NCBI GenBank assembly: GCA_016180435.1
Contig: JACPBG010000004.1
Location: 59,660-123,659 of the forward strand
Source: Candidatus Sungiibacteriota bacterium
GTDB taxonomy: Bacteria > Patescibacteriota > Minisyncoccia > Sungbacterales > HO2-52-23
Length of the DNA stretch: 64,000 nt
Direction: 5' to 3'
Below, one piece after another: positions 23-49,847 of the stretch; positions within the stretch are counted from its first letter, which is position 1; the number at the start of each line of letters is the position of its first letter. Under the pieces are notes generated by a model that had not been told where the DNA came from, searched no databases, and saw only the letters and a list, made by a program, of their open reading frames with translations. The translations under genes were made by a program, and so were the position numbers.

Positions 23-3000
23 TTGCCTGCGGCCAAAGAACTAAGAACTAAGAACTTAGAACTTAGAAAACCAAAAAGGGAACTAAGTTCTAAATCACTA
101 AGATCTAAGTTCTATGATGCAAAATCATTTTGCATCGTTGTCCCTCCTCCCAACGTTACCGGTTCTCTGCATATGGGACACGCTCTGAATGCCGTTATTC
201 AGGACATCTTGATACGCAAAAAACGAATGGAAGGATTTAGAACTTTATGGCTTCCCGGTACGGATCATGCCGGAATTGCTACGCAAAATGTGGTGGAAAA
301 AGAACTTCGCAAACAAAATATTTCGCGCCACGAATTGGGCAGGGAAAAATTTTTGGCGAGTGTGTGGGAATGGAAAGAAAAATACGGGAATATAATTCTG
401 GACCAATTTAAAAAACTGGGTTCTTCTATGGATTGGTCGCGCGTGCGTTTTACCATGGATGAGGGGTATAAAAAAGCGGTGGAGGAGGCATTTATTCACT
501 ATTATAAAAAAGGATGGATTTACCGCGGAGAGCGCACGGTGAATTGGTGTTCGCGTTGCGCGACTTCCCTTTCGGACCTTGAAATTGAGTATCGGGAAGA
601 GAAAGGCAAATTTTACTATATTAAATACGGCCCCATGGTTTTAGGAACCGCACGGCCGGAAACAAAATTAGGGGATACTGCGCTGGCGGTAAATCCGGTA
701 GACAAACGGTATAAAAAATACATCGGGAAGGAAATTATTATTCGATCGGTGGATTCGTCGGTGGTTCGTGAAGAACAGCCCCGGCTCAAAGATATAAAAA
801 TAAAGGTGGTTGCGGATGAGGCGGCTGATCCGAAATTTGGAACAGGCGTGATTAAAGTAACGCCGGCCCATGATGCGGCTGATTTTGGAATTTATCAGCG
901 GCATCCCGAGATTCTGATTATAAAAGTAATTGGCGAAAACGGACGCATGACTAAAGAGGCGGGTGCGCGTTATGAGGGGCTGAAGGTTTCCGAGGCCCGG
1001 AAACAAATTATTGAAGACCTGGAAAAATTAGGACTCATGGATCATATCGAGGATTACACGCATAACGTCTCGTTATGTTATCGCTGCGGGACAGTGATTG
1101 AGCCGCTTCTTTCCAAACAGTGGTTCTTAAAAATGGATGAATTGGCTAAAATGGCAATTAAAGCCGCCCGCCCCGTTAGAGCCGGCTCTAATGGGGTTAA
1201 ATCCGGAAAAATTAAGTTTCATCCCAAGCGTTGGGAGAAGATTTATTTTGATTGGCTCGGCAATATCAAAGATTGGTGCATATCAAGACAGATTTGGTGG
1301 GGACACCGTCTGCCTGTCTGGTATTGTATGGGCTCGCATATCCAAACCGAAAAAAAAATGGGATTTGCCGGAGATATTGTCCCACAGGTTTTTATCAACA
1401 AAACACGGACTTACCGGTTACGCGATCACGGATTTAAAATTGGTGACCGTGTTGCATTTGAAAACAGCGCTACCGGAGAGATCTTTGGATACGCCGTAAT
1501 TACTGAAATTAAAAAAACAACCGCGGGTGAAATCGATTTAAAAGACCCGAAACATTACAAAATATATAACACCTGCGAGGAACTTATTACAGCATTCAAG
1601 CACCATCCGCAAAAAATAAATAAAGGAACAATCAGTGAAAATACTCTCGTGTGGATTTATACATATCGGTTTGAACCGGCTGATAAATCTGGATCATGCA
1701 TTCGGTTAAATCCCGTTGTAAAGGGCAACTGGTTTTTTGTGAGGCATGGAGAAACGGATTTTAATAAAGAACGTCGTATTCAGGGACAAACCGCTGGAGG
1801 CCCTCTTAATGAATTAGGAAAAAAACAAGCATATGAAACCGCTCAGCGGTTGAAGCCATATAAAATTGATTTAATTATTAGTTCGGATTTGGCGCGAGCT
1901 AAAGATACCGCCGAAATAATTGCCAAAGAGCTTAACGCCGAGATCATTTTTGATGCGGCATTGCGCGAAAGAAATTATGGCATTGCGGAAGGTACGACCC
2001 CTGAAGAGCGAAAACAGCACTACCCCGAATTAGAAGACCGTCTCAAGGAATATACCTTTGTGCCAGACGGCGGAGAAAATTTACCAACCATGGAGAAACG
2101 GATATACCGGGCGCTGGCGCAGCATAAAAAAAATCACCTCCATAAAAATATAGTCATCATATCACACGGCGCCACACTTAAAGGACTTTTTCGTAAGTTA
2201 AAAAATATACCGTTCAACGAGTTTTCCGAATTTACGATCCATAACGCCGGCGTTATTCATGTCTCCATTTCCGATCCATGTGAGAAATGCGGGAGCGATT
2301 TGGCGGAGCAAGACACTAATGTTCTGGATACATGGTTTTCATCCGCGCTTTGGCCTCTGGCAACACTTGGTTGGCCGGATAAAACGGGAGATCTTAAAAA
2401 TTTCTATCCCACCTCGGTATTATCCACGGCGCGTGATATAATCAATTTATGGGTGGCGCGCATGGTATTTTCCGGGCTGGAATTTATGGGAAAGCCGCCG
2501 TTTAAGGATATAATCATCCACGCCACCATTCTCACTAAAGATGGCAAACGGATGTCAAAATCCCTCGGAACCGGCATTGACCCCATGATTTTGATTGAAA
2601 AATACGGGGCAGATGCCGCGCGTTTCGGACTTATTTGGCAGGCCATGGGCAATCAGGATATACACTGGTCGGAGGAGCATGTGGTGGCCGGAAAAAAGTT
2701 TGCCAATAAGATTTGGAACGCCAGCAGATTCGTCCTGCTCCAAATTCCAAATTCTAAATTCCAAACTCCAAACAAATCACAAATTCCAAATTCTAAATTC
2801 CAAACATCGGCGGATAAAAAGATACTGAAACAACTGGAAAAAACAAAAAAAGATGTTTCCAAAAGCATTGATAAATATGAATTTGGACAAGCGCTACATG
2901 CGCTTTACGAATTTTATTGGCACGAGTTTTGCGATGTCTACATAGAAACAGCTAAATCACAAATCACAAATCACAAATCACAAGCAGCAACAGAAAATAT

Positions 3001-3130
3001 TTTACTTTATGTTCTCATTGAATCATTGAAACTCCTACATCCTTTTATGCCTTTTGTTACCGAAGAAATATGGAGCCATCTGCCGCTGAAAGACAAGAAG
3101 CTGTTACTCGTTGAAAACTGGCCCACATAA
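23..3130 (+). CDS. valS: valyl-tRNA synthetase carrying a ~330-aa internal insertion (ASCH/PUA-like + histidine-phosphatase domains); 5' end possibly truncated by window edge (TTG start at 23, frame open to position 2)
   Basis: PPPNVTGSLHMGHA (HIGH), KMSKSLGTGIDP, editing-domain motifs TARPETKLGDTALAVNP and GTGVIKVTPAHD, DWCISRQIWWGHRLP, DTWFSSALWPLATLGWP. Confidence 0.9.
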   Translation: MPAAKELRTKNLELRKPKRELSSKSLRSKFYDAKSFCIVVPPPNVTGSLHMGHALNAVIQDILIRKKRMEGFRTLWLPGTDHAGIATQNVVEKELRKQNISRHELGREKFLASVWEWKEKYGNIILDQFKKLGSSMDWSRVRFTMDEGYKKAVEEAFIHYYKKGWIYRGERTVNWCSRCATSLSDLEIEYREEKGKFYYIKYGPMVLGTARPETKLGDTALAVNPVDKRYKKYIGKEIIIRSVDSSVVREEQPRLKDIKIKVVADEAADPKFGTGVIKVTPAHDAADFGIYQRHPEILIIKVIGENGRMTKEAGARYEGLKVSEARKQIIEDLEKLGLMDHIEDYTHNVSLCYRCGTVIEPLLSKQWFLKMDELAKMAIKAARPVRAGSNGVKSGKIKFHPKRWEKIYFDWLGNIKDWCISRQIWWGHRLPVWYCMGSHIQTEKKMGFAGDIVPQVFINKTRTYRLRDHGFKIGDRVAFENSATGEIFGYAVITEIKKTTAGEIDLKDPKHYKIYNTCEELITAFKHHPQKINKGTISENTLVWIYTYRFEPADKSGSCIRLNPVVKGNWFFVRHGETDFNKERRIQGQTAGGPLNELGKKQAYETAQRLKPYKIDLIISSDLARAKDTAEIIAKELNAEIIFDAALRERNYGIAEGTTPEERKQHYPELEDRLKEYTFVPDGGENLPTMEKRIYRALAQHKKNHLHKNIVIISHGATLKGLFRKLKNIPFNEFSEFTIHNAGVIHVSISDPCEKCGSDLAEQDTNVLDTWFSSALWPLATLGWPDKTGDLKNFYPTSVLSTARDIINLWVARMVFSGLEFMGKPPFKDIIIHATILTKDGKRMSKSLGTGIDPMILIEKYGADAARFGLIWQAMGNQDIHWSEEHVVAGKKFANKIWNASRFVLLQIPNSKFQTPNKSQIPNSKFQTSADKKILKQLEKTKKDVSKSIDKYEFGQALHALYEFYWHEFCDVYIETAKSQITNHKSQAATENILLYVLIESLKLLHPFMPFVTEEIWSHLPLKDKKLLLVENWPT

Positions 3131-3134
3131 AAGC

Positions 3135-3166
<32 letters not shown>

Positions 3167-3257
3167 AGACATGAATGCTAAGATCTAAGTTCTTGAATGC
3201 TAAGTTCTACGTTGCATAGCAACGCTGGCCGCAGTCATAGGAATAAATATCGGATAT

Positions 3258-8108: not shown

Positions 8109-9195
8109 GAATTGTATCCGTCATATGTTCCAACCTTTTCTCTTTTGCTAATTCATAAATGGAGTCATAGGGAATATATGAACAGAGCTCCGACAAAGGC
8201 CCTTTCTCCATGACCGCAAAGATTGGGCGAGAAATTTGTTTAAAAACTTCATTTCGTCTGTTGTTGGGCGCAACAATATGAATTTTAATTTCTATATTTG
8301 GCAAAAGAGAAAGTAGATCGGCCATTCTTAAAATACCGGAGTAAATCGACGTCGTTCCCTCAACTTCAAACGCTCGAATTATTGTACGCCCTTGAATCCA
8401 AAGAACGTCGATATTTTTAATCGTTCTTAATGTGATGTCATCAAAAGAAAATGGAAGCTCCTCCAATAAGACATTTTCTTTCGGCTTCCATACTTCTAAT
8501 ACTCCCACGCGATCATTTCTTGGTAACCACACCTTAAAACCTAATTTCTCTCCAATTTCCGAGAGTTTGGCCTGAACCCTGATCGATTCCCGCTCCTCGC
8601 CTACTGGTACTACTTCTTGTGCTTCTTTAGTGGGTTCTTCATCTTCCGGAACTGACACAGAAACTTCCTTTTTGCCAGCCAGACGCATTTTTGAAGATTT
8701 TAATTTCTTTTCATCATTTTCACTAAATTTATATTCAACGAGTTTTTGAGATTGTTCAATGAGTATTTTTTCCAAAAACTCGCAATCGGTTTTTGGCCAC
8801 AAACGAGGACTCGAAAAAATCACATACGTCCATTTGTTGCTATCTTTGGCGAATTCTTTTGTAAAAGAAAGATTATTCCAAATAAAGTCCTCGTGAACAG
8901 GAATCGCTTTTTCAAAAGGTAACCAAACTATAGGTTTTACATTAAAGCGCAAAATAAATGGATCATCTTCTTTTTGAAACAGAGGTGTCTTATCTATAAA
9001 ATATTTACTGGTAATTTCCAAAACACCAACGAAGCGTTGTATCCTTGTTACATAGCAAATAAACTTGTCGCCCGGGCCAATATTTTGATTTTCTACATAA
9101 GTTTTTCTGGAAATCCGAAAACCGCTTACATCCTGTTTGGATTGTTCAAATGCTCGTGCGGTTTCCGGAGAAAATAGATCAATAAAGTAACTCAT
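8077..9195 (-). CDS. EVE/PUA-like N-terminal domain fused to C-terminal putative PD-(D/E)xK-like nuclease domain (type IV / modification-dependent restriction-like)
   Basis: N-term GPGDKFICYVTRIQRFVGVLEITSKYF...DPFILRFNVKPIVWL fits PUA-like beta-barrel pattern; C-term IDVLWIQGRTIIRAFEVEGTTSIYSGILRMADL nuclease-like core; acidic low-complexity linker. Confidence 0.45.
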   Translation of the reverse strand: MSYFIDLFSPETARAFEQSKQDVSGFRISRKTYVENQNIGPGDKFICYVTRIQRFVGVLEITSKYFIDKTPLFQKEDDPFILRFNVKPIVWLPFEKAIPVHEDFIWNNLSFTKEFAKDSNKWTYVIFSSPRLWPKTDCEFLEKILIEQSQKLVEYKFSENDEKKLKSSKMRLAGKKEVSVSVPEDEEPTKEAQEVVPVGEERESIRVQAKLSEIGEKLGFKVWLPRNDRVGVLEVWKPKENVLLEELPFSFDDITLRTIKNIDVLWIQGRTIIRAFEVEGTTSIYSGILRMADLLSLLPNIEIKIHIVAPNNRRNEVFKQISRPIFAVMEKGPLSELCSYIPYDSIYELAKEKRLEHMTDTILDEYSEYSEE

Positions 9196-19672: not shown

Positions 19673-21865
19673 ATGTCTATTTTGGATATTCCAATTGAAA
19701 ACGCGCCGCGGATCAACCGCCGCATTATTCCGGCGCTTAGGCGTTTGGGCATAAAAACCGTGCGCGATATTTTGTTTCATTTTCCCTCGCGCTATGAAGA
19801 TTTTTCGAACGAGAAACAAATTTCTGAAATAAAAATCGGAGAGATAGTAACCATATCCGGAATTATTAAAAGAACCGCTTTGCACCGCACGGCCCGCAAA
19901 CATATGGCGCTGGTGGAGGCGGTGGTTTCGGACGAGAGCGGATCCATAAAAGCCGTTTGGTTCAACCAGCCGTATCTTTTGCGGAATTTCAGAATCGGCA
20001 ACGCTCTGCGCCTTTCCGGAAAAATTGCCCGCGGACCCAAAGGAGTTTATCTGCAAAATCCCGCATACGAGAAGTTATCAGCTACCAGCTACCAACTACC
20101 AGCTCAACAAAGTATCCATACTGGAGGACTGGTTGCAATTTATCCGGAAACGCGGGGCATTACTTCGCGTTGGTTGAGGTTCTTGGTAAAGACCTTTATT
20201 GATCAGAGAAAATTTATAATTGATCCTCTGTCGACCGATGTGCGGAAAAAGCATGTTCTTCCGGATATTCAAACCGCGCTCAAAGTAATCCATTTTCCGC
20301 AAGATAAAAAGGAATCAAATCAGGCGCGACGTCGGTTCGTTTTTGAGGAACTTTTTTTAATCCAACTTCGTGCGCTTCGCGCCCGGGCGTTACTTAAGCA
20401 ATACTCGGCTCCCCAGATTCCGACCAATTTGCCGCTTCTTAAAGAATTCGTGGCGTCTTTGCCTTTTAAGTTGACCGATGCCCAGCGCCGATCCGTGTGG
20501 GAAATCGCGAAAGATATAGAAAAACCGCGTCCCATGAACCGTCTGCTGGAGGGAGATGTGGGGTCCGGAAAAACCGTGGTTGCGGCCGCAGCCGCATTGC
20601 TTGCGGTTCGCGCGGGATACAAGATCGCATTTATGGCGCCCACCGAAATTCTGGCGCACCAGCACTATGATACGTTTCAGAAAATACTTGAGCCGTTTGA
20701 TATAAAAATTGGAATTTTGACCGGCGCGAAAAAATTAGCACAAAATGCGGACATAATAGTCGGCACGCATGCGCTTCTCCACCCCGTTAGAAGTAAGACG
20801 TCGGGGGCGTCTGCCGATCCAATTTTATCGGATCGGACTTCTAACGGGGTAAAAAAATCCGCCAGGTTTGAAAATTTGGGGCTGGTGATTATTGACGAAC
20901 AGCATCGTTTCGGAGTCCAGCAACGAGCGGCGCTTGTTGTACGCGGATCTGCGTTGCTGCCCCACTTTTTAAGCATGAGTGCAACCCCCATTCCGCGCAC
21001 TCTTGCCCTTACAATCTATGGAGACTTGGACCTTTCCATATTGGATGAGATGCCAAAATCGCGGAAACAGGTTATTACGAGAATCATAGAGCCGGGGAAA
21101 CGGAATGAGGCATACCAATTTATTCGATCAGAAGTAAAAAAAGAAAGACAAGTTTTTGTGATATGTCCGCGCATAGAGCCATCACCAACGAATAACCCCG
21201 AAGTAGAACCATCGGTTCACTACGGGGCAGGCGAATCCGGCGCGAATAAACGAATAAATGAATCGGCGTTTCGCTTGTGGGAGGTTAGGGCGGTGAAAGA
21301 TGAATATAAAAAACTTTCCGAAACAATTTTTCCCGAATTTAAAATAGGAATGCTTCACGGCAAATTAAAATCCAAAGAAAAAGAGGCGGTGATGAAAAAA
21401 TTTAAAAGCGGAGAAATCGATATTCTGGTTTCAACTTCGGTGGTGGAGGTCGGCGTGGATATACAAAATGCCACGATCATGATTATAGAGGGCGCGGAGC
21501 GTTTCGGGCTGGCACAACTTCATCAATTCCGCGGCCGCGTGGGGCGCGGGACTGATCAATCATATTGTTTTCTTTTTCCCACCGAGGACGGCATGGTAAC
21601 GCGGCGTCTGCGCGCGGTGGTGGATGCCAGAAACGGATTTGAGCTGGCGGAGCAGGATCTGAAAATCCGCGGTCCCGGCGATCTTTTCGGGACGGAACAA
21701 TGGGGAATTTCGGATACGGCCATGGCCGCAATTACCGATTCGGTTTTGGTCCGAGAGGTGCGCTCTGCCGCTTATGATTTGATGCGTGAAGACCCCCTGC
21801 TTTTACTTGTGCCGGAGTTAAAGCGCAAACTTGAAGAGATTGAAAAAACAGCTCATCCGGAATAA
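19673..21865 (+). CDS. recG: ATP-dependent DNA helicase RecG, carrying in-frame palindromic-element insertions
   Basis: LEGDVGSGKTVVAAAAALLAVRAGYKIAFMAPTEILAHQH (Walker A region), LVIIDEQHRFGVQQR (DExH), helicase C motifs; wedge-domain region FNQPYLLRNFRIG. Confidence 0.9.
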   Translation: MSILDIPIENAPRINRRIIPALRRLGIKTVRDILFHFPSRYEDFSNEKQISEIKIGEIVTISGIIKRTALHRTARKHMALVEAVVSDESGSIKAVWFNQPYLLRNFRIGNALRLSGKIARGPKGVYLQNPAYEKLSATSYQLPAQQSIHTGGLVAIYPETRGITSRWLRFLVKTFIDQRKFIIDPLSTDVRKKHVLPDIQTALKVIHFPQDKKESNQARRRFVFEELFLIQLRALRARALLKQYSAPQIPTNLPLLKEFVASLPFKLTDAQRRSVWEIAKDIEKPRPMNRLLEGDVGSGKTVVAAAAALLAVRAGYKIAFMAPTEILAHQHYDTFQKILEPFDIKIGILTGAKKLAQNADIIVGTHALLHPVRSKTSGASADPILSDRTSNGVKKSARFENLGLVIIDEQHRFGVQQRAALVVRGSALLPHFLSMSATPIPRTLALTIYGDLDLSILDEMPKSRKQVITRIIEPGKRNEAYQFIRSEVKKERQVFVICPRIEPSPTNNPEVEPSVHYGAGESGANKRINESAFRLWEVRAVKDEYKKLSETIFPEFKIGMLHGKLKSKEKEAVMKKFKSGEIDILVSTSVVEVGVDIQNATIMIIEGAERFGLAQLHQFRGRVGRGTDQSYCFLFPTEDGMVTRRLRAVVDARNGFELAEQDLKIRGPGDLFGTEQWGISDTAMAAITDSVLVREVRSAAYDLMREDPLLLLVPELKRKLEEIEKTAHPE
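20782..20849. repeat. RPE-like palindromic element, family 1 (CCCCGTTAGAAGT...ACTTCTAACGGGG), inserted in-frame in recG adding ~23 aa (PVRSKTSGASADPILSDRTSNGV)
   Basis: terminal 13-bp inverted repeats; same termini at 29584-29684 and 59050-59183. Confidence 0.8.
21196..21227. repeat. palindromic element family 2 copy (CCCCGAAGTAGAA-n8-TTCACTACGGGG) inside recG
   Basis: shares TTCACTACGGGGCAGGCG with 18661-18680. Confidence 0.6.
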
Positions 21866-21892: not shown

Positions 21893-21932
21893 TCCTATCT
21901 TATGCTTACGCGCGATCGCGCGTAAGCATAAG
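21893..21932. terminator. 36-bp perfect palindrome tcttatgcttacgcgcgatcgcgcgtaagcataaga between convergent recG and 22016..22612; likely bidirectional terminator; adjacent tandem repeat aaaagtgtgcgaataaaa x2 and second hairpin gtaccgaatttagttcggtac
   Basis: seen directly. Confidence 0.6.
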
Positions 21933-22015
21933 ATGGAAAAGTGTGCGAATAAAAAGTGTGCGAATAAAAAATGTACCGAATTTAGTTCGGTACAATACCG
22001 CATTCGCATCGGTTT

Positions 22016-22612
22016 CTACTGCAAAATGTCTTTTTCGGGAATATAAATTCCTTGCTCGCGAAGCCATTCCAAATTCTTTTGATCGCCCGTATTTACATAA
22101 CGCTTCCACACGGCGGTAACCACCTCAAGTTCTATGCCGACATTTCCCTCTACCAGCACATGGGAAAAGACCCGGACGAATTTATGGATATCGGCAGCCA
22201 GTGTATTGAAAGTAACTGCTTGGCCGACCTCTCTAATTATTCGTTCATATAGCTTTTGATATGCGGTCGCGGCGGTTTGAATATAATATTCCGTCCCCAA
22301 AATTCGGTGGGAAATAAGTTTTTGGGCAGTAAATACGCCGGAAACCAAAAGGGCTGTATCTCCAATGTATTTTATTCTTAAATTTGCCTCTCGTCCGTTT
22401 TGCGGCAGAAGCAAATAAAGAATTGTATTCAGGTGATATTCGTTCAGGACACCTTTTTCTTTACAAAAAAATTCCATGAGAACATCAACAAGGTAACTTT
22501 CTACCATAAGATAATCATTGGTTAGGGGAAGATTTTGAACTTCCCAAATTTTGTCAAGGAGCTCCCGAAAAAGTTCGGGCGGAGTGGTAACTGTATCAAT
22601 AATGGGTTTCAT
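22016..22612 (-). CDS. hypothetical protein
   Basis: ORF with good coding look, no recognisable motif. Confidence 0.4.
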   Translation of the reverse strand: MKPIIDTVTTPPELFRELLDKIWEVQNLPLTNDYLMVESYLVDVLMEFFCKEKGVLNEYHLNTILYLLLPQNGREANLRIKYIGDTALLVSGVFTAQKLISHRILGTEYYIQTAATAYQKLYERIIREVGQAVTFNTLAADIHKFVRVFSHVLVEGNVGIELEVVTAVWKRYVNTGDQKNLEWLREQGIYIPEKDILQ

Positions 22613-22684: not shown

Positions 22685-24145
22685 TTATTGAACGGGTTTG
22701 AATACTAATTGATTTTCGGAAACGCAAAGCAGCGTTTCTTTGCCATTGACGGTCGTATTCAGGACCACTTCGTGCCCCCAAAGCTGGCGAAGATACTGGA
22801 GCGTCTTCTCGGCATATTCTAACTGGAGGTCGCGGCCGTCATGGGCGTGCTTCAAATATAGCGTTCGCTCACTGTTATAATCGGCATCCTCAACTTTAAT
22901 GACCGGTATGGTTCCGGTGCCGACGTTTTGAATCAAAGTGTCTTTGATGCTCCGCCAGTTCTCCTCGTCGGCGACGCGGCTGATGACTTTGTCGTTGCCC
23001 CTGGTTTGATATTCAAACAGTTTGAGTTCGCGAACCAGGTCTTCAGTAAGGAATCGTCGAAGAAAAGATGTGTCCCGCTCAACTTCGCGCACCACAAATA
23101 TTTTATTCCTGCCCTGCATTGTTTTTATGTTCCAGTCGCTTCGTTCGCTAGCCGTACACAAATCATATTCCGGACCGAAACGGCCTTTATCCCACCGCTC
23201 TTCAATGTCTTCCCAGATTTTCATGCCAACATGATACGGATTTAGGCCGCCCGGAGTCGGACAGAGCACCTGCGTGTGGCGCACGATGAACTCCATATGT
23301 AGGTTTTGAGGCAGTTCTAGGGATTCAAGGATTCGTTTGTGCCAGAAGCTTGCCCAACCCTCGTTCATAATCTTGGTTTCCATCTGGGGAATGAAATACT
23401 GCGCTTGTTCGTGTACGATGGTCAAAAGGTCTTTTTCCCATTCCGCCAAGTGCGGGTTATGATCCCGCACAAAGAGAAGTATGTCTTCTTCCGGATAGGG
23501 CGGGACCTTTGTCAAGTCGGGTTCCACGTGTTCTACTCTCCGATGGATGGCGTGGTGCGGGTCATGCCTTGGCCTTGATTCATCGATTTTTCGTTCTTTC
23601 TGCTCTTTCTCGGTTTCTTTCTTGATGGAAAGATTCCGTCGGCATTGGAGCGATAGCGCGTGCGCCGCGTCAAGTACGCGCTCAACTTTTTCCAGTCCAA
23701 TGCTTGGATCCTCAATGTAGTGGCGCACGCGGTTGGCGTGAGCCTTGAATGTTTCAATAGTGTATTCCGTCTGGGTGGTTCTGAAAGTGAAGTTGTTCTT
23801 AAAAAAGTCGTTGTGCGCGTATACATGGGCGATGGTGAGAACCTGCAAGGCCAGACTGTTATCGCGCATGAGATAGGCGATGGAGGGATTGGAATTGATC
23901 ACCATCTCGTAGGGCAGGCCGCTGAGACCGTAGTCGTAAAGGGTTTTGAGTTTCTCGAACCCCTTGCCGTAAGACCAGTGGGGATAGTGGGAGGGCATGC
24001 CGGAATAGACCATATAAGAGAGCATCTGTTCATAGTCGCAGACCTCGAATTCCTGGGAATAGGGGTCAAGACCGAATTTTTGCACCAGTTCAACGATACG
24101 CTGGTTCCACTCCTGGAGATCTTCGGTTGTCCATTCTCTACTCAT
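22685..24145 (-). CDS. SpoVR/YcgB-family protein
   Basis: N-terminal similarity pattern to YcgB: ...SYMVYSGMPSHYPHWSYGKGFEKL...PYEMVINSNPSIAYLMRDNSLALQVLTIAHVYAHNDFFKNN. Confidence 0.8.
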   Translation of the reverse strand: MSREWTTEDLQEWNQRIVELVQKFGLDPYSQEFEVCDYEQMLSYMVYSGMPSHYPHWSYGKGFEKLKTLYDYGLSGLPYEMVINSNPSIAYLMRDNSLALQVLTIAHVYAHNDFFKNNFTFRTTQTEYTIETFKAHANRVRHYIEDPSIGLEKVERVLDAAHALSLQCRRNLSIKKETEKEQKERKIDESRPRHDPHHAIHRRVEHVEPDLTKVPPYPEEDILLFVRDHNPHLAEWEKDLLTIVHEQAQYFIPQMETKIMNEGWASFWHKRILESLELPQNLHMEFIVRHTQVLCPTPGGLNPYHVGMKIWEDIEERWDKGRFGPEYDLCTASERSDWNIKTMQGRNKIFVVREVERDTSFLRRFLTEDLVRELKLFEYQTRGNDKVISRVADEENWRSIKDTLIQNVGTGTIPVIKVEDADYNSERTLYLKHAHDGRDLQLEYAEKTLQYLRQLWGHEVVLNTTVNGKETLLCVSENQLVFKPVQ

Positions 24146-43947: not shown

Positions 43948-44658
43948 ATGATACGAGTTATTTTGGTTGACGGACTTTTTACGATTTTTGTTCCGAAAAA
44001 CGGCATGAGCAGATACGAAATGCTACAACTTTTAATCGTCAAATTTCTTGGCGTACGGATTGAGGTTGATGAAATTCAGCCGGTATACGATGCCATGCGT
44101 AAAAAATGGGAAGAGATCCTACCGCCAAATCACGGAGAAAAGTGGGCGATTATTGACCGCGAAATATTGCGGGCGCTTGTTCCCACAATTTCGTTGGCAA
44201 ATGCGGCTTTGGTCGGCAAGAAAATAAGCCATGCCACACTTTCGGACCCCGATCTTTATGAAATTTTGCCGGATACGCGCGGATTTTTGCGGCGCGCCAA
44301 ACACCGCGGAATACGTACGGTATTCGCCTCAAATCAGGATAAGGAAAAGTTACAAATTCTGATTGGGGCTTTCGGATTGGGACCGCTGGTTAACGCGGTG
44401 TATGTTTCTACGGAAATCGGCCATGAGAAACCAAGCCAGGATTTTTTTGAAGCAATACTTCGGCAGGAAAATATTCGGGCCGATGAATGCGTGATGGTTG
44501 GCAATAATCCGCATAATGACATTTACGGCGCGGCTTCAGTCGGAATTCGCGGGATTTTATATGACCGTGACAATGCCTATTCGGATTTTTCCGGACATCG
44601 CGTATCGCGTCTTAGCGAGGTTTTCGAGATTGATGCAATTTTTGGGGAAAGGAGATAG
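43948..44658 (+). CDS. HAD-superfamily hydrolase-like protein
   Basis: motif III-like VMVGNNPHNDIYGAASVGIRGILYD, motif II-like TVFASNQ; motif I region VILVDGLFT degenerate. Confidence 0.5.
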   Translation: MIRVILVDGLFTIFVPKNGMSRYEMLQLLIVKFLGVRIEVDEIQPVYDAMRKKWEEILPPNHGEKWAIIDREILRALVPTISLANAALVGKKISHATLSDPDLYEILPDTRGFLRRAKHRGIRTVFASNQDKEKLQILIGAFGLGPLVNAVYVSTEIGHEKPSQDFFEAILRQENIRADECVMVGNNPHNDIYGAASVGIRGILYDRDNAYSDFSGHRVSRLSEVFEIDAIFGERR

Positions 44659-45356: not shown

Positions 45357-45944
45357 TTGAAATTTTACGTCGCCCCGATTATGATTAACTATATGACCAA
45401 ACAAATAATCATTGCGGTGGTTGGCCTTATCGGATCCGGAAAGACTGAGGCCACCCAAAAATTTATAGAGGCCGGTTTTGAAAGAGTCGGATTTAATGAT
45501 CGCGTATATGAAGAGTTGGATCAAAGAGGTCTTGCGTGCATAGAAAAAAACGAACGTGCGGTTCGGGAGGAACTTCGCGCACAAGAGGGCATGGGCGTTA
45601 TGGCTAAGCGCTCGCTTTCTAAAGTAGAATCGGCCCTGCGGGATGGAAAAAATGTCGTGGTGGAAAGTTTATACAGCTGGGATGAGTATAAAATCATGAA
45701 AGAGCGGTTTGGCGAACAATTCCGAACTCTGGCAATTTATGCGCAGCCCGAAATTCGTTATCGGCGTTTGGCGGCCCGCCCGATCCGTCCGCTTTCGCTG
45801 GAAAATGCGATTTCCCGAGATTATGCCCAAATAGAAAATCTTGATCAGGCCGGGCCGATTGTAATGGCTGATTGGACCATAGAAAATATCGGGACCAGAG
45901 AAGAATTGCTGGCGGCATTGGATAAAATTATTAACGGACTATAG
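45357..45944 (+). CDS. P-loop nucleotide kinase, dephospho-CoA-kinase-like
   Basis: IIIAVVGLIGSGKTEATQKF (CoaE-like P-loop). Confidence 0.45.
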   Translation: MKFYVAPIMINYMTKQIIIAVVGLIGSGKTEATQKFIEAGFERVGFNDRVYEELDQRGLACIEKNERAVREELRAQEGMGVMAKRSLSKVESALRDGKNVVVESLYSWDEYKIMKERFGEQFRTLAIYAQPEIRYRRLAARPIRPLSLENAISRDYAQIENLDQAGPIVMADWTIENIGTREELLAALDKIINGL

Positions 45945-46024: not shown

Positions 46025-46696
46025 TTATGATGCAAGAAGGTCGGGGTTATTGTTCAGGTATTTCATAATTTCCAGACTCCAATTATCAATGCCGAGAAGC
46101 CCGCGGGCTTTTTCTTTTTGGTCGCGTTCCGTGAGTTCCTCAAGCGACCACCATTTGGCCTCTTCCAGCTCCTCGCCGGCGTTTATACGAACCGAAAGTT
46201 CGTCACCCATAAGGAGAAATGCAAACCCCAGATGCGCCGCGCTGACTTGGCGCGACGGGTCGTAAATTACGCCGATGGGAAACGCAAAGGGCAGTCCTTC
46301 GTATCGAATTTCCTCGCACCATTCGCGCCGGAACCACCCTATCAAGCTTCCATAATCCGTGGTGTCGCGTTTTCGCAGGTGTCCGGCTATGCCTATCATT
46401 CGTTCGCCGTGAAGGCGCGTTTCACTTGAGCGGTTTGACTTAACATATGAGAAGATTTTTTCCTGCGCCGAAAGAACGCCGAAAGGAATAACCTGCAGCC
46501 ATTCGGTGGTGTAGGTTTCATCTACTCCATTTTTTCCGAAGCGCGGCAGAAATTTATGGCATTGGCGCACAACTTTAAGGAGGCGGCTGAATTCCGGATT
46601 GATGCCCATCCACGAGCCGTTGGCAAAAATGTCGTCTCGGTGCACGACCATTACTTCTTCGTTTTCACGATTTCGTCGCGCCATTGGACAGCTCAA
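46025..46696 (-). CDS. hypothetical protein
   Basis: ORF only. Confidence 0.35.
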   Translation of the reverse strand: MSCPMARRNRENEEVMVVHRDDIFANGSWMGINPEFSRLLKVVRQCHKFLPRFGKNGVDETYTTEWLQVIPFGVLSAQEKIFSYVKSNRSSETRLHGERMIGIAGHLRKRDTTDYGSLIGWFRREWCEEIRYEGLPFAFPIGVIYDPSRQVSAAHLGFAFLLMGDELSVRINAGEELEEAKWWSLEELTERDQKEKARGLLGIDNWSLEIMKYLNNNPDLLAS

Positions 46697-47466: not shown

Positions 47467-48060
47467 TTATATTTGCCAGCCGGTGTTGGCAAGGATTAGT
47501 TTTATTTGGCTGCCGAGTTCCTTTATGGTTCCGTTATTATCAAGGACCCGTACGGCCGAAAGATTTTTGATCGTGGCGACAAATTTTGCGGTCTCGTGCT
47601 CGTGCATTTTTTTAAATTCTTCCAGCGTGATCTTGGCCTCATCCGGTTTAGCGTCAGCTTCTTGGCAAAGTGCGGCCAGCCGCGCGCGTTTATATCTGGT
47701 TTCTATTTTGCAGTCAACGAAAAAAAGAATATTTTGCGGAAAACTTCGGATGAATTCCACGTCCCAAGGCATAAGCACGCCGTCAAATATCCAGATTCTT
47801 TTTTTGCTCTCTTCCCATCGTTCACGGATGCCGGAGTGCAGACACCTCCTGCCAAGCGCCTTTTGGGCCCGGGAAAAGCAGTCCTGCAAAGTTTTCCGGT
47901 TGGTCGGATCCGGCCGCTCAAAAGCCATGGCAAGATCGGTTAAGATCATGCCGCTGGAAATTACCGAGGTATCGCCGTGAAATATGGTTTCAAGAATTTT
48001 AACACAGGTTCCCTTCCCACCGCGAAGTTCCGCTGATATTCCGATTACGGTATCGGGCAT
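47467..48060 (-). CDS. P-loop NTPase-like hypothetical protein
   Basis: GISAELRGGKGT P-loop-like. Confidence 0.4.
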   Translation of the reverse strand: MPDTVIGISAELRGGKGTCVKILETIFHGDTSVISSGMILTDLAMAFERPDPTNRKTLQDCFSRAQKALGRRCLHSGIRERWEESKKRIWIFDGVLMPWDVEFIRSFPQNILFFVDCKIETRYKRARLAALCQEADAKPDEAKITLEEFKKMHEHETAKFVATIKNLSAVRVLDNNGTIKELGSQIKLILANTGWQI

Positions 48061-48134: not shown

Positions 48135-48190
48135 TCAGTCGATCTTTTGATTGTTAACATCATACTACGATCGTATATAGTTGTTAACAA
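48135..48190. repeat. ~45-bp palindromic site GTTAACA-n3-TACTACGATCGTATATA-n2-TGTTAACA, copy 1
   Basis: near-identical direct copy at 48820-48868; each copy internally palindromic. Confidence 0.75.
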
Positions 48191-48222
48191 TTAACTTGGT
48201 TTGATCAATATATTCCTAAAAA

Positions 48223-48804
48223 TCAGTTTTTGAGTAAATTCTCTATTGTTCCACTTTTTTGTATGCTCAAAATATGAACTTTATTTTTGAGACGCAATTC
48301 ATCCAGCCGTTCAATAAATTGCTGGGGAAGCGGATTAAAGCCGAGCCACACGCTTTTTTGCAGGTGCCGAAATCCGCAGGCGGTCAATTCCATGCGCACT
48401 ATATCACGCTTTCGTCTTTCTCGTTCCGGAATGTCGAAAATAACCAGACGCGGGATACCATCTTTTTCCGGTATTTCCAGGACAATTTCCTGTCGCTTAT
48501 GCAATCGCAGTTTACCTTTTGTGGTAATATGCCACCGGGAATTTCGTGAGGATCCATTGCGTCCAACCAGTCCATGTCGCTTTAGACGGGAAAGAATGGC
48601 GGAGAGCGTGCGGGGAGAAACCTCGGGACTGGAATCTAATCCGAAAAGGCGGCGGCCAGATGATGTGAAGGAATATTGAGGAGGGAAGAAGGCGTCAAGA
48701 AATACTTTTCCTCCCTCTGCGAGTTTCTCCAATACAAGCCGCGTGATTGAGCGATTTTTTACATATACGCGGGAAGAGGGTTTTTGCATGTAGATTTTTA
48801 CCAT
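48223..48804 (-). CDS. winged-HTH protein with C-terminal Cas2-like/PaaX-C-like domain
   Basis: N-term wHTH-like LVLEKLAEGGKVFLDAFF; C-term LVIFDIPERERRKRDIVRMELTACGFRHLQKSVWLG resembles Cas2 core (vYDi...RR...k.L...G.r.Q.SVf). Confidence 0.4.
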   Translation of the reverse strand: MVKIYMQKPSSRVYVKNRSITRLVLEKLAEGGKVFLDAFFPPQYSFTSSGRRLFGLDSSPEVSPRTLSAILSRLKRHGLVGRNGSSRNSRWHITTKGKLRLHKRQEIVLEIPEKDGIPRLVIFDIPERERRKRDIVRMELTACGFRHLQKSVWLGFNPLPQQFIERLDELRLKNKVHILSIQKSGTIENLLKN

Positions 48805-48819
48805 AAAAATAGATATTAT

Positions 48820-48868
48820 GGACTGTTAACAATGTACTACGATCGTATATAACTGTTAACATTTGATG
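48820..48868. repeat. ~45-bp palindromic site copy 2
   Basis: direct repeat of 48135-48190. Confidence 0.75.
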
Positions 48869-48942
48869 AAACTTAATTTTTTGCTTTAGTAACACCTTAT
48901 TTTATCCACGTACCAGAAGACCACGGGCTTGCCCGTGGAGCT

Positions 48943-49368
48943 TCATTTCAGTATGTCAATTCCCATTGAGCGGGCCGTACCCTCGATTATTTTTTCTGCG
49001 GCCTCGGGGTTCTCGGCGTTTAAATCCTCCATTTTGCGCTCGGCGATCTTTCGGATGTCTTCGCGGGTAACACGCCCCACCTTCTTTTTATTCGGCTCTC
49101 CGGACCCCTTTTCCACGGATGCGGCTTTGCGCAGCATGTCGGATGCCGGCGGAGTTCGTAATTTAAACTCAAAACTACGGTCTTCAAAGATCGTAATTTC
49201 CACGGGCACAATTTCTCCCTCCATTTTTCCGGATGCCTCGTTATATTTTTTTACAAAGTCCCCGATATTGATGCCGTGCGGCCCGAGAGCCGTGCCTACC
49301 GGCGGCGCCGGAGTGGCTTTGCCGGCCGGAAGCTGGAGTTTAAGTTTTACTTTAATTGGTTTGGCCAT
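48943..49368 (-). CDS. rplK: 50S ribosomal protein L11 (start at [12 protein letters not shown])
   Basis: [45 protein letters not shown]. Confidence 0.9.
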
Positions 49369-49369
49369 G

Positions 49370-49420
49370 TTTTTACAGATTAACACAGATTTCTCACAGA
49401 TGTTCACAGATCACAGATAA
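49370..49420. repeat. array of CACAGAT heptamers (x5, irregular spacing)
   Basis: inverted counterpart ATCTGTG array at 49803-49845. Confidence 0.7.
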
Positions 49421-49847
49421 ATTGTTTTCTATCGTTTGTATGGATATATCTGCAGGGCTTTAACGTTTTTTCTGCGAAATTTACCGCATACCCAAGTTCA
49501 TATTTGCTTATTTTTAGATACTCTAAGAGTTGTCGTCCGGCTTCAATCATTTTATGCGGCGGGAGCGCCTTTAGTTCTACCAGCACTTTATCATTTATAA
49601 GATAGTCGGGCACAAAGAAACCAATTCTTTTTCCATTAGTCACAGAATGCAGTGTTATTTTGGGCTTCGCGATAAACGAAATTTTAGCTTGTTCGAGTTC
49701 CTCTTGAAAGGCGCGGTCATATATAATTTCTCTATGCCCAGATCCGTATTTATTATGCGCCGCAAACAGGCAACCGATTATTTTATGACATAATTCTTTT
49801 TCAGGAAATCTGTGATCTGTGTTGATCTGTGTAGAATCTGTGGGCAT
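49404..49847 (-). CDS. GxxExxY-family protein (PD-(D/E)xK-like), inserted between nusG and rplK
   Basis: N-term [30 protein letters not shown] and C-term [10 protein letters not shown] are the family hallmarks. Confidence 0.7.
49803..49845. repeat. array of ATCTGTG heptamers (x4-5)
   Basis: inverse of 49370-49420 array. Confidence 0.7.

Follow-up and report, generated by a model that had tools for sequence, protein, structure and literature searches.

A short PaaX-like protein of Patescibacteria and the composite palindromes that bracket its gene: a probable autorepressor and local repressor

In a 64-kb stretch of DNA from a Candidatus Sungiibacteriota bacterium (contig JACPBG010000004.1; the whole stretch is called the window here), a gene for a protein of 193 amino acids (aa) lies between two copies of a 38-bp composite palindrome. 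The protein combines an N-terminal winged-helix (wHTH) DNA-binding domain with a C-terminal Cas2-like domain, and we consider it probable that it acts as a dimeric autorepressor and local repressor, whose two wHTH domains read the arms of the palindromes in a geometry like that of the repressor PaaX. According to this model, a homodimer would bind the unit arm-N7-ACGATCGT-N7-arm; the two recognition helices would read the two arms, whose centers lie 30 bp apart, and the Cas2-like dimer would be placed at the dyad, above the CGATCG core or close to it. Binding at the upstream site, which overlaps a pair of -35/-10-like elements, would repress the gene itself. Binding at the downstream site would control the adjoining P-loop kinase-like gene and/or block transcription out of or into the cassette, i.e. 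the gene with its two sites. We favor this reading because of the family assignment, the fold, the site geometry and the comparative data, which also support the PaaX-like repressor with operators that an earlier note on this DNA had proposed; binding, repression, looping, a roadblock role of the second site and any nuclease activity are all inferences. Three family-wide features appear to be undescribed: the tripartite site with paralog-specific arms around CGATCG, the site-gene-site bracket, and the presence of several paralogs with differing arms in one genome. Within the searchable literature library, no paper was found to connect PaaX with Cas2 or with Patescibacteria.

Domain structure and distribution of the protein

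Residues 115-188 of the protein match the Pfam family PaaX_M (PF20803, "PaaX protein central Cas2-like domain") with an E-value of 3.9e-15 and 56.2 bits against a cutoff of 24. Profiles of Cas2 itself are also matched, below their family cutoffs: PF09827 with 21.7 of the required 23.8 bits (E = 2.4e-4) and TIGR01573 with 20.5 of 24.5 bits, while the Cas2 models of PADLOC reach E = 1.5e-5. The C-terminal domain has the ferredoxin-like fold of Cas2, and the Cas2-like core recognized in the earlier note is borne out by the PaaX_M and Cas2 matches. In an AlphaFold2 model with a mean predicted local distance difference test score (pLDDT) of 74.9, and of 85-93 across most of the C-terminal domain, the top Foldseek matches in the PDB are PaaX of Escherichia coli W (8a39, E = 1.3e-5) and a PaaX-like protein of Jannaschia (3l09), aligned over 175-183 columns that comprise both domains. 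Sequence searches of the PDB yielded marginal matches with the full protein and none with the C-terminal domain alone. The NCBIfam model of PaaX (TIGR02277) covers residues 64-177 with 31.1 bits, far below its equivalog cutoff of 264.55, and hhalign pairs residues 60-181 with residues 50-171 of the 316 residues of E. coli K-12 PaaX.

The protein ends at residue 193, right after the Cas2-like domain, and no PaaX_C domain is matched in Pfam. From these matches, the protein is, as far as profiles and a predicted structure can tell, a PaaX without the C-terminal effector domain, that is, a putative minimal PaaX-type DNA-binding protein made of a wHTH and a Cas2-like dimerization domain. It shares with E. 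coli PaaX, the repressor of phenylacetate catabolism (PDB 8A39; 3L09 for the Jannaschia protein), the succession of N-terminal wHTH and Cas2-like PaaX_M, and differs from it in length (about 190 versus 316 aa), in lacking PaaX_C, the helical domain for the effector phenylacetyl-CoA, and in its genomic setting. There is no linkage to paa genes; the neighbors are nusG, rplK and genes of the PDDEXK_3, P-loop kinase-like, NUDIX-like, AAA_18 and HAD types, and relatives adjoin genes for aminoacyl-tRNA synthetases (aaRS), GAPDH, TrmD and the like. From Cas2 it differs by the fusion to a wHTH domain, by the scores below the Cas2 cutoffs and by its place among housekeeping genes rather than in cas operons. 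It is thus neither a PaaX equivalog nor a Cas2, but a member of a large two-domain wHTH-Cas2-like family of Patescibacteria. The absence of a CRISPR array from the window, stated in the earlier note, holds for searches with TRF and Rfam, and the Pfam-scanned genes near the locus include no cas gene, although cas1 was not searched across the whole window.

Conservation within the family is uneven. Among 26 diverse members the recognition helix is variable, and the invariant polar residues (D124, E127, R133, R137, Q149, S151, H177 and T186) are concentrated in the Cas2-like domain. In the hhalign alignment, the invariant motifs VIFDIPE...R...R and LQKSVW lie opposite LLLLSEG and LAPSLM of E. coli PaaX, which has LLSEG where the family has (F/Y)DIPE. 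D124, E127, R133, R137 and Q149 face other residues at the aligned PaaX positions and S151 is kept; H177 falls inside the alignment, with a counterpart that is not resolvable. On the basis of this motif alignment, the short family keeps Cas2 hallmark residues that are absent from E. coli PaaX.

Relatives are numerous. A database clustered at 90% returned 136 of them, nearly all 170-195 aa long and with PaaX_M. With a threshold of E<=1e-10, a protein library clustered at 50% identity has 2,687 representatives, of which the 150 best listed are short as well, mostly 170-215 aa. Among GTDB species representatives, 554 relatives were found. The named ones belong to Patescibacteria or to unclassified metagenome-assembled genomes (MAGs), next to a few third-party-annotation (TPA) MAGs with other, unverified labels. 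Lineages represented are Sungbacteria, Giovannonibacteria, Moranbacteria, Nealsonbacteria, Gribaldobacteria, Curtissbacteria, Daviesbacteria, Berkelbacteria, Saccharimonadales and other Patescibacteria. Genomes possess 2-4 paralogs, and the arms differ between them; copies are found on four contigs of JACPYI01, and three each in CAZGLK01 and CAYJOT01. The family looks like one of the larger families of DNA-binding proteins in Patescibacteria. A second paralog within the window was considered and rejected: the weak tblastn match at 8515-8844 belongs to a 372-aa protein with a sub-threshold EVE-domain match, which is not a relative. An assignment to a defense system or a phage was rejected too, given that PADLOC returned only the weak Cas2 matches, PHROGs none, and 2.9 million viral contigs contain no relatives.

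Composite palindromes on both sides of the gene

All genes around the focal gene are encoded on the minus strand: secE comes first, followed by nusG, a PDDEXK_3 gene and rplK, then by the focal gene itself and a gene for a P-loop kinase-like protein of 197 aa. The reading frame encodes the 193 aa given in the earlier note; NCBI places the start at Met6 (48789), which results in 188 aa (P0001, a 100% identical protein of a Candidatus Sungbacteria MAG). Because of the common strand, the bracket amounts to a site that precedes the focal gene and another that separates it from the next co-directional gene. The downstream site begins 34 nt past the stop codon of the regulator and ends 92 nt ahead of the start codon of the kinase-like gene, thus occupying the stretch 92-130 nt upstream of the latter. 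Both sites fit the pattern TGTTAACA-N7-ACGATCGT-N7-TGTTAACA. In the orientation of the gene, the upstream site reads TGTTAACA GTTATAT ACGATCGT AGTACAT TGTTAACA, and on the plus strand it reads TGTTAACA-AATGTACT-ACGATCGT... The pattern TGTTAACA-N3-TACTACGATCGTATATA-N2-TGTTAACA occurs exactly twice in the window, namely at these two sites, with 0.00 matches expected from 100 shuffles. The arm sequence TGTTAACA has five occurrences where 0.62 would be expected; apart from one, these are the arms of the flanking sites.

The earlier note had described identical 45-bp repeats, each itself a palindrome. These repeats do exist, and chance does not account for them, but they are 84% identical over 44 nt (48149-48192 vs 48821-48864), with the differences confined to the two 7-nt spacers and the flanks, and the conserved unit measures 38 bp, or 44 with flanks. 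Likewise, the palindromic character applies to the 8-bp arms and the central TACGATCGTA, but not to the spacers: each site is composed of three symmetric elements, arm / TACGATCGTA / arm, whose centers are 15 bp apart, and outside the core 12/17 and 11/17 positions are symmetric in the two sites.

The same layout recurs throughout the family. We fetched 80 related loci (L-numbers label the compared related loci and site-bearing contigs) and scored palindromes around CGRYCG centers; the scores are bimodal, with a background mode at 4-5/17 and a second mode at 11-17. In 56 of the 78 loci with a callable gene, such a palindrome is found both upstream and downstream. The center of the upstream site is located a median of 46 nt before the start codon and that of the downstream site a median of 37 nt after the stop codon, and paired centers are 526-840 bp apart. 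The unit is compact, the sites being closer to the regulator than to the neighboring gene in 30/41 upstream and 30/36 downstream cases. With no match expected in the window and recurrence of the layout in these 56 independent loci, chance and simple local duplication are rejected. In the close relatives L081 (85% protein identity) and L082 (72%), the synteny of nusG, PDDEXK_3, rplK and regulator is retained, and the arms and core of both sites are kept where the remaining intergenic DNA has diverged.

Within the site, the center CGATCG is nearly invariant across the family, the arms have 7-9 bp, and the spacer length is fixed at 6-7 nt. For 112 flanking sites, the symmetry amounts to 0.82-1.0 in the core (0-3 positions from the center), falls to 0.52-0.66 in the spacers (positions 4-10) and rises again to 0.80-0.95 in the arms (positions 11-18). 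One might suspect that the invariant core was imposed by the search pattern. This was rejected by an arm-only scan with unconstrained center, in which 81 of 95 flanking palindromes had a CGRYCG center (66 of them CGATCG) as compared with 13 of 146 palindromes in 476 kb of control DNA; the core is therefore real. Neither is CGATCG unusual in the genome, for example by restriction avoidance (11 occurrences, about 14 expected).

The arms, in contrast to the core, are specific to the locus: those of the two sites of one gene are 82-95% identical per position, those of different loci 30-40%. They are associated with the recognition helix of the adjacent protein. Proteins with the helix SAILSRLK, including that of the window, go with TGTTAACA arms, though their overall identity is only about 50%; SMNLWRLQ is paired with GTATACA arms, STMLWRLQ with TCAACAA arms, and IRKNLxRLI with GTGTGACAG arms. 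This correlation is partly a reflection of common descent.

Some copies of the site are perfect 17-20-bp palindromes, and sites stand between cistrons, so they could also be imagined as RNA hairpins for termination, stability or processing, recognized by the Cas2-like domain as an RNase; RNase activity has been reported for Cas2 and VapD proteins. We regard this possibility as highly improbable. Among the mismatches in the palindromes, G:U wobble pairs are not in excess, the ratio of G:T to A:C being 42:52 upstream and 56:42 downstream, and 7-nt spacers of poor complementarity between highly complementary distal arms would make a weak hairpin and fit half-sites held at a fixed distance. The wHTH fold and the relationship to PaaX favor double-stranded DNA, and in the window the predicted transcription start falls at the edge of the upstream site. 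Taken together, the missing wobble excess, the fixed spacer length and the asymmetric spacers suggest a protein that reads two half-sites on duplex DNA and not an RNA stem. Intrinsic terminators are rejected, since no T-tracts adjoin the sites.

The operator of E. coli PaaX is TGATTC-N27-GAATCA (39 bp), and PaaX represses its own promoter as well (PMC9493321). The candidate operator described here has a similar span, its putative inverted half-sites being arranged as 8-N22-8 in 38 bp as against 6-N27-6 in 39 bp; it is different in its tripartite form with an invariant CGATCG core, in the bracketing of the gene by two sites and in the 2-4 sets of arms per genome. A search for exact matches to TGATTC-N25-29-GAATCA in the paa cluster of K-12 gave none and is uninformative.

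In the window, both sites contain sigma-70-like promoter elements. In the upstream site the distal arm would provide the -35 element TTAACA, followed by a 17-nt spacer and the -10 element TACATT in the proximal spacer; TTAACA-18-TATGGT (48829..48800) is an alternative. The promoter-like pair in the downstream site is aimed at the kinase-like gene, and a mirror match on the plus strand (48154-48181, TTAACA-16-TATAGT) faces back into the regulator gene from its 3' side. The kinase-like gene is probably the local target of the downstream site; its ortholog comes after the cassette in L081, L141 and L145. As an observation of its own, at 36 downstream sites with a co-directional next gene the better -10-like hexamer points back at the regulator in 14 cases and forward in four; these back-pointing matches may represent antisense transcription or noise.

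Regulators encoded between their own operators are familiar from lambda CI (OR/OL), the CI protein of coliphage 186 and LacI (O1/O3), which loop DNA between sites a few hundred bp to 2.4 kb apart. The position of the gene between cognate sites is the same here, whereas the protein family is unrelated, the layout is a trait of hundreds of chromosomal paralogs, and looping is only hypothetical.

Solo sites and alternatives to a simple operator

Copies of the site elsewhere, for which the earlier note had suggested a search, do occur, both linked to regulators and on their own. Scanning metagenome contigs with TGTTAACA-N6/7-ACGATCGT-N6/7-TGTTAACA retrieved 74 loci. A site was counted as solo if its distance to the contig end exceeded 800 nt and the 220 nt around it contained no family gene. 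Among the exact sites, 35 are of this kind and 24 adjoin a family gene, and for another 25 the contig end is too near to judge. Their density is about one solo site per 37 kb. Behind rplK, the loci L112, L147 and L128 have a solo site and then genes for a cytidylyltransferase-like protein and a dCMP deaminase, and they lack a regulator there; at the same place, the window, L081, L141 and L145 have the full arrangement of site, gene and site. In L063, L066 and L067 a cognate site precedes each gene of a small cluster behind the regulator, so that every intergenic gap has one; the genes encode a cyclodipeptide synthase-SBP fusion, an Asp/Glu racemase, a major facilitator superfamily (MFS) transporter or an 840-aa Mur-ligase-like protein. 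In L008, L010 and L018 the downstream site precedes tRNA-Glu(CTC). Judged by their positions, the sites before cluster genes, before tRNA-Glu and away from regulator genes would fit a local regulon.

Three side observations concern these loci. In L010 and L018, a second palindrome of another arm class follows tRNA-Glu, between two 3' ends. In L044, three cognate palindromes (2727, 2910 and 3037) share a single intergenic region of about 600 bp that is separated from the regulator, on its upstream side, by one gene, and no open reading frame (ORF) of at least 70 aa is called between the copies. Finally, in this lineage and in relatives of it, genes next to TGTTAACA-type sites are often related to nucleotides (P-loop kinase-like, NUDIX-like, AAA_18 kinase, HAD phosphatase, cytidylyltransferase-like, dCMP deaminase), which hints at a nucleotide-salvage regulon around these sites.

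Several results weigh against a repressor with ordinary operators. De-duplicated solo sites lie in 20 co-directional, 11 convergent and three divergent regions, the baseline being about 71%, 14.5% and 14.8%, respectively; this enrichment in convergent regions is the opposite of what promoter operators predict, and the 13 extra sites in the genome loci likewise include four convergent ones. Among 55 paired loci, 19 keep the downstream site although the next gene is convergent, a co-directional tRNA accounting for just three of the 19. The neighbors are heterogeneous housekeeping genes (ArgRS and other aaRS, GAPDH, TrmD, ParA, glycosidases) with no common theme. Across the family, -10-like hexamers have no directional bias, so that the promoter within the site is not general and a rule to that effect is not supported. 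As to the protein, an effector-binding domain is absent, and the invariant polar residues of the Cas2-like domain could point to chemistry beyond dimerization alone. A core that is invariant across the whole diverse family is unusual for paralogous regulators. The earlier note had kept simple autoregulation as its fallback, for the case that Cas2-like similarity and further copies of the site were missing; the similarity is supported, the copies exist, and simple autoregulation is too narrow, as the bracket is conserved even where the next gene is convergent.

Bound sites could have an architectural role instead. In a compact genome, they would halt RNA polymerase where genes end, in the manner of terminators or insulators that depend on a protein, or they would be bridged, which would enclose the regulator gene in a loop of about 640 bp. 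This would agree with the occurrence of sites at 3' ends and in convergent gaps, with some 19 loci in which the regulator's stop codon marks the beginning of the downstream site (center 16-21 nt past it), with the place of the cassette in strings of housekeeping genes (aaRS, rplK, GAPDH), and with the lack of T-tracts, by which the sites are not intrinsic terminators. We consider it unlikely as a separate explanation. No higher-order oligomerization domain is evident, the distances between paired centers show no obvious constraint by inspection (without a formal helical-phasing test), and a roadblock overlaps with the proposed repressor instead of excluding it.

Between L066 and L063, the difference consists of exactly one gene, the cyclodipeptide-synthase/SBP fusion, together with one site, and the two breakpoints are located within the 46-bp site. 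L066 and L067 have the regulator and the MFS gene in common, with different genes between the sites; the paralogs L004 and L009 of one genome, 77% identical, have only site and gene in common; and several other pairs vary just outside a site. An apparent change of context between L089 and L119 was rejected as an artefact of gene calling, the two loci being collinear and 98% identical. One explanation, related to the att-like sites of a tiny element that the earlier note had offered as its second alternative, would be that the palindromes are recombination sites (att- or attC-like) or REP-like elements, and that site-gene-site is a cassette which is gained, lost and copied. The Cas2-like domain would nick or synapse DNA at CGATCG, alone or with a host recombinase, and the arms read by the wHTH would give each paralog its own class of site; a circle with one site, integrating into a solo site, would leave the gene between two direct copies. 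The compact unit in varied contexts, the solo cognate sites enriched at 3' ends and in convergent regions, and the alternation of a solo site and the full cassette behind rplK are in line with such exchange, as are the invariant Cas2 hallmark residues, mostly replaced at the aligned positions of E. coli PaaX. Likewise, only about 40-48% of the regulator pairs that are 70-90% identical have neighbors in common, a figure inflated by crude gene calls.

Known mobile systems provide partial precedents. Repetitive extragenic palindromic (REP) elements occur in tens to hundreds of copies and flank genes for RAYTs (REP-associated tyrosine transposases), i.e. HUH/Y1 (IS200/IS605-like) transposases that bind hairpins of single-stranded DNA. 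The gene between cognate palindromes, the intergenic or 3' solo copies and the palindrome class per paralog correspond to what we observe; however, the protein here is wHTH plus Cas2-like and not an HUH/Y1 transposase, the site looks like a pair of half-sites on double-stranded DNA, and the low copy number, estimated from contigs, is unlike that of REPs. Integron cassettes are similar in their arrays of genes separated by imperfect palindromes (attC) and in the gene-plus-site indels between relatives; they differ in that attC conserves the outer core sites rather than the center, whereas the present sites of 38-44 bp conserve the center, and in that no IntI-type recombinase was noticed among the scanned neighbors. 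Sites of tyrosine recombinases have conserved arms and a variable center, the reverse of the situation found here.

Further results speak against cassette exchange. No recombinase or transposase was noticed among the scanned neighbors (L061, L063, L066, L067 and pooled Pfam scans), with the limits that the scans were not exhaustive and that the pooled summaries comprise the 25 commonest of 50-56 families. No strand-transfer chemistry is known for a wHTH combined with a Cas2 fold. The lineage of the window is syntenic down to 72% protein identity, and relatives are absent from the viral contigs. Deletion between 44-bp direct repeats requires no dedicated enzyme, and breakpoints fall into sites partly because sites fill every intergenic gap of the cluster; the differences are equally readable as cassette exchange or as the ordinary outcome of short repeats in every gap. 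A recombination role seems quite unlikely to us. We keep it in play because four features lie outside a simple operator model: the downstream site kept beside a convergent next gene, the convergent enrichment of solo sites, the invariant Cas2 hallmarks and the one gene-plus-site indel with breakpoints inside a site. The wider form of this idea, in which other genes bounded by sites are also inserted, excised and shuffled in genomes of Patescibacteria, appears equally doubtful. The dimeric autorepressor and local repressor thus remains the reading we favor.

Further features of the locus and significance

Table 1. Coordinates of the regulator locus in the window and of selected features in related loci (L-numbers)
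Feature	Position	Strand	Remarks
Focal regulator gene	48223..48804	minus	582-nt ORF, 193 aa, two-domain protein
Upstream (promoter-side) 38-bp composite palindrome	48824..48861	none	
Downstream 38-bp composite palindrome	48152..48189	none	
Next gene, P-loop kinase-like	47467..48060	minus	197 aa; weak AAA_17 and PRK08356 matches
Sigma-70-like promoter in upstream site	48831..48859	minus	consensus match only
Sigma-70-like promoter in downstream site	48159..48187	minus	TTAACA-17-TATGAT, 10/12; consensus match only
GC-rich hairpin CCACGGGC-TTGC-CCGTGG	48921..48938	called on plus	just past rplK (48943-49407, minus)
Solo palindrome TATCTTATGCTTACGCG-CGATCG-CGCGTAAGCATAAGAT	21896..21935	none	16/17 positions symmetric
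Nucleotide-related genes	window 47467-48060, 46025-46696, 45357-45944, 43948-44658; L112 795-2298		
Small regulator-linked clusters	L066 3906-8422; L063 3858-6859; L067 3894-8542		gene content differs exactly at sites
tRNA-Glu(CTC) behind downstream site	L010 4690-4803; L018 4191-4331; L008 4651-4723		

Judging from its sequence and position, the GC-rich hairpin (Table 1) would act on the minus strand and probably ends the rplK transcript, in which case the regulator gene would be a transcription unit of its own. The solo palindrome of the window, a near-perfect 40-nt sequence (TATCTTATGCTTACGCGCGATCGCGCGTAAGCATAAGAT) with a CGATCG center, is situated between two convergent genes, recG (19673-21865, plus) and a 198-aa ORF (22016-22612, minus). 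Because its architecture is the same and its arms are different, it probably belongs to a paralog whose gene lies beyond the window. Directly after the palindrome comes a 15-nt tandem repeat (21937-21981), and a SpoVR-like protein (E = 5e-146) is encoded at 22685-24145, adjoining the 198-aa ORF. Elsewhere in the window, tandem repeats of the heptamers TCCAAAT, AAATCAC and ACTTAGA are grouped inside 500 bp (2739-3213).

The PD-(D/E)XK nuclease gene (PF13366, PDDEXK_3; 49404-49847, minus) between nusG and rplK overlaps the start of rplK by 4 nt. Between L081 and L141, the flanks of this gap show 99.4% identity, and about 470-500 bp between nusG and rplK (L081 2110-2609, L141 3704-4170) remain without alignment; L081 has a PDDEXK_3 gene of 147 aa there, L141 no ORF of at least 60 aa. 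From this presence and absence between nearly identical flanks, the gene looks like a polymorphic insertion.

To our knowledge, very little is known about gene regulation in Patescibacteria (Candidate Phyla Radiation, CPR). If the proposed reading is right, the readable pairing of recognition helix and arm would open the way to a direct prediction of regulons from MAGs. Furthermore, the family would link Cas2 and PaaX, because it keeps the Cas2 hallmark residues that E. coli PaaX lacks, and with it the placement of a Cas2 fold on a defined DNA sequence would become testable. More than textbook autorepression would be suggested by the conserved bracket and by sites at 3' ends, be it insulation, looping or cassette exchange. 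Should the last of these be true, the family would represent Cas2-like proteins with a site-specific DNA function of their own outside CRISPR, and possibly a relative of the ancestor of the adaptation module.

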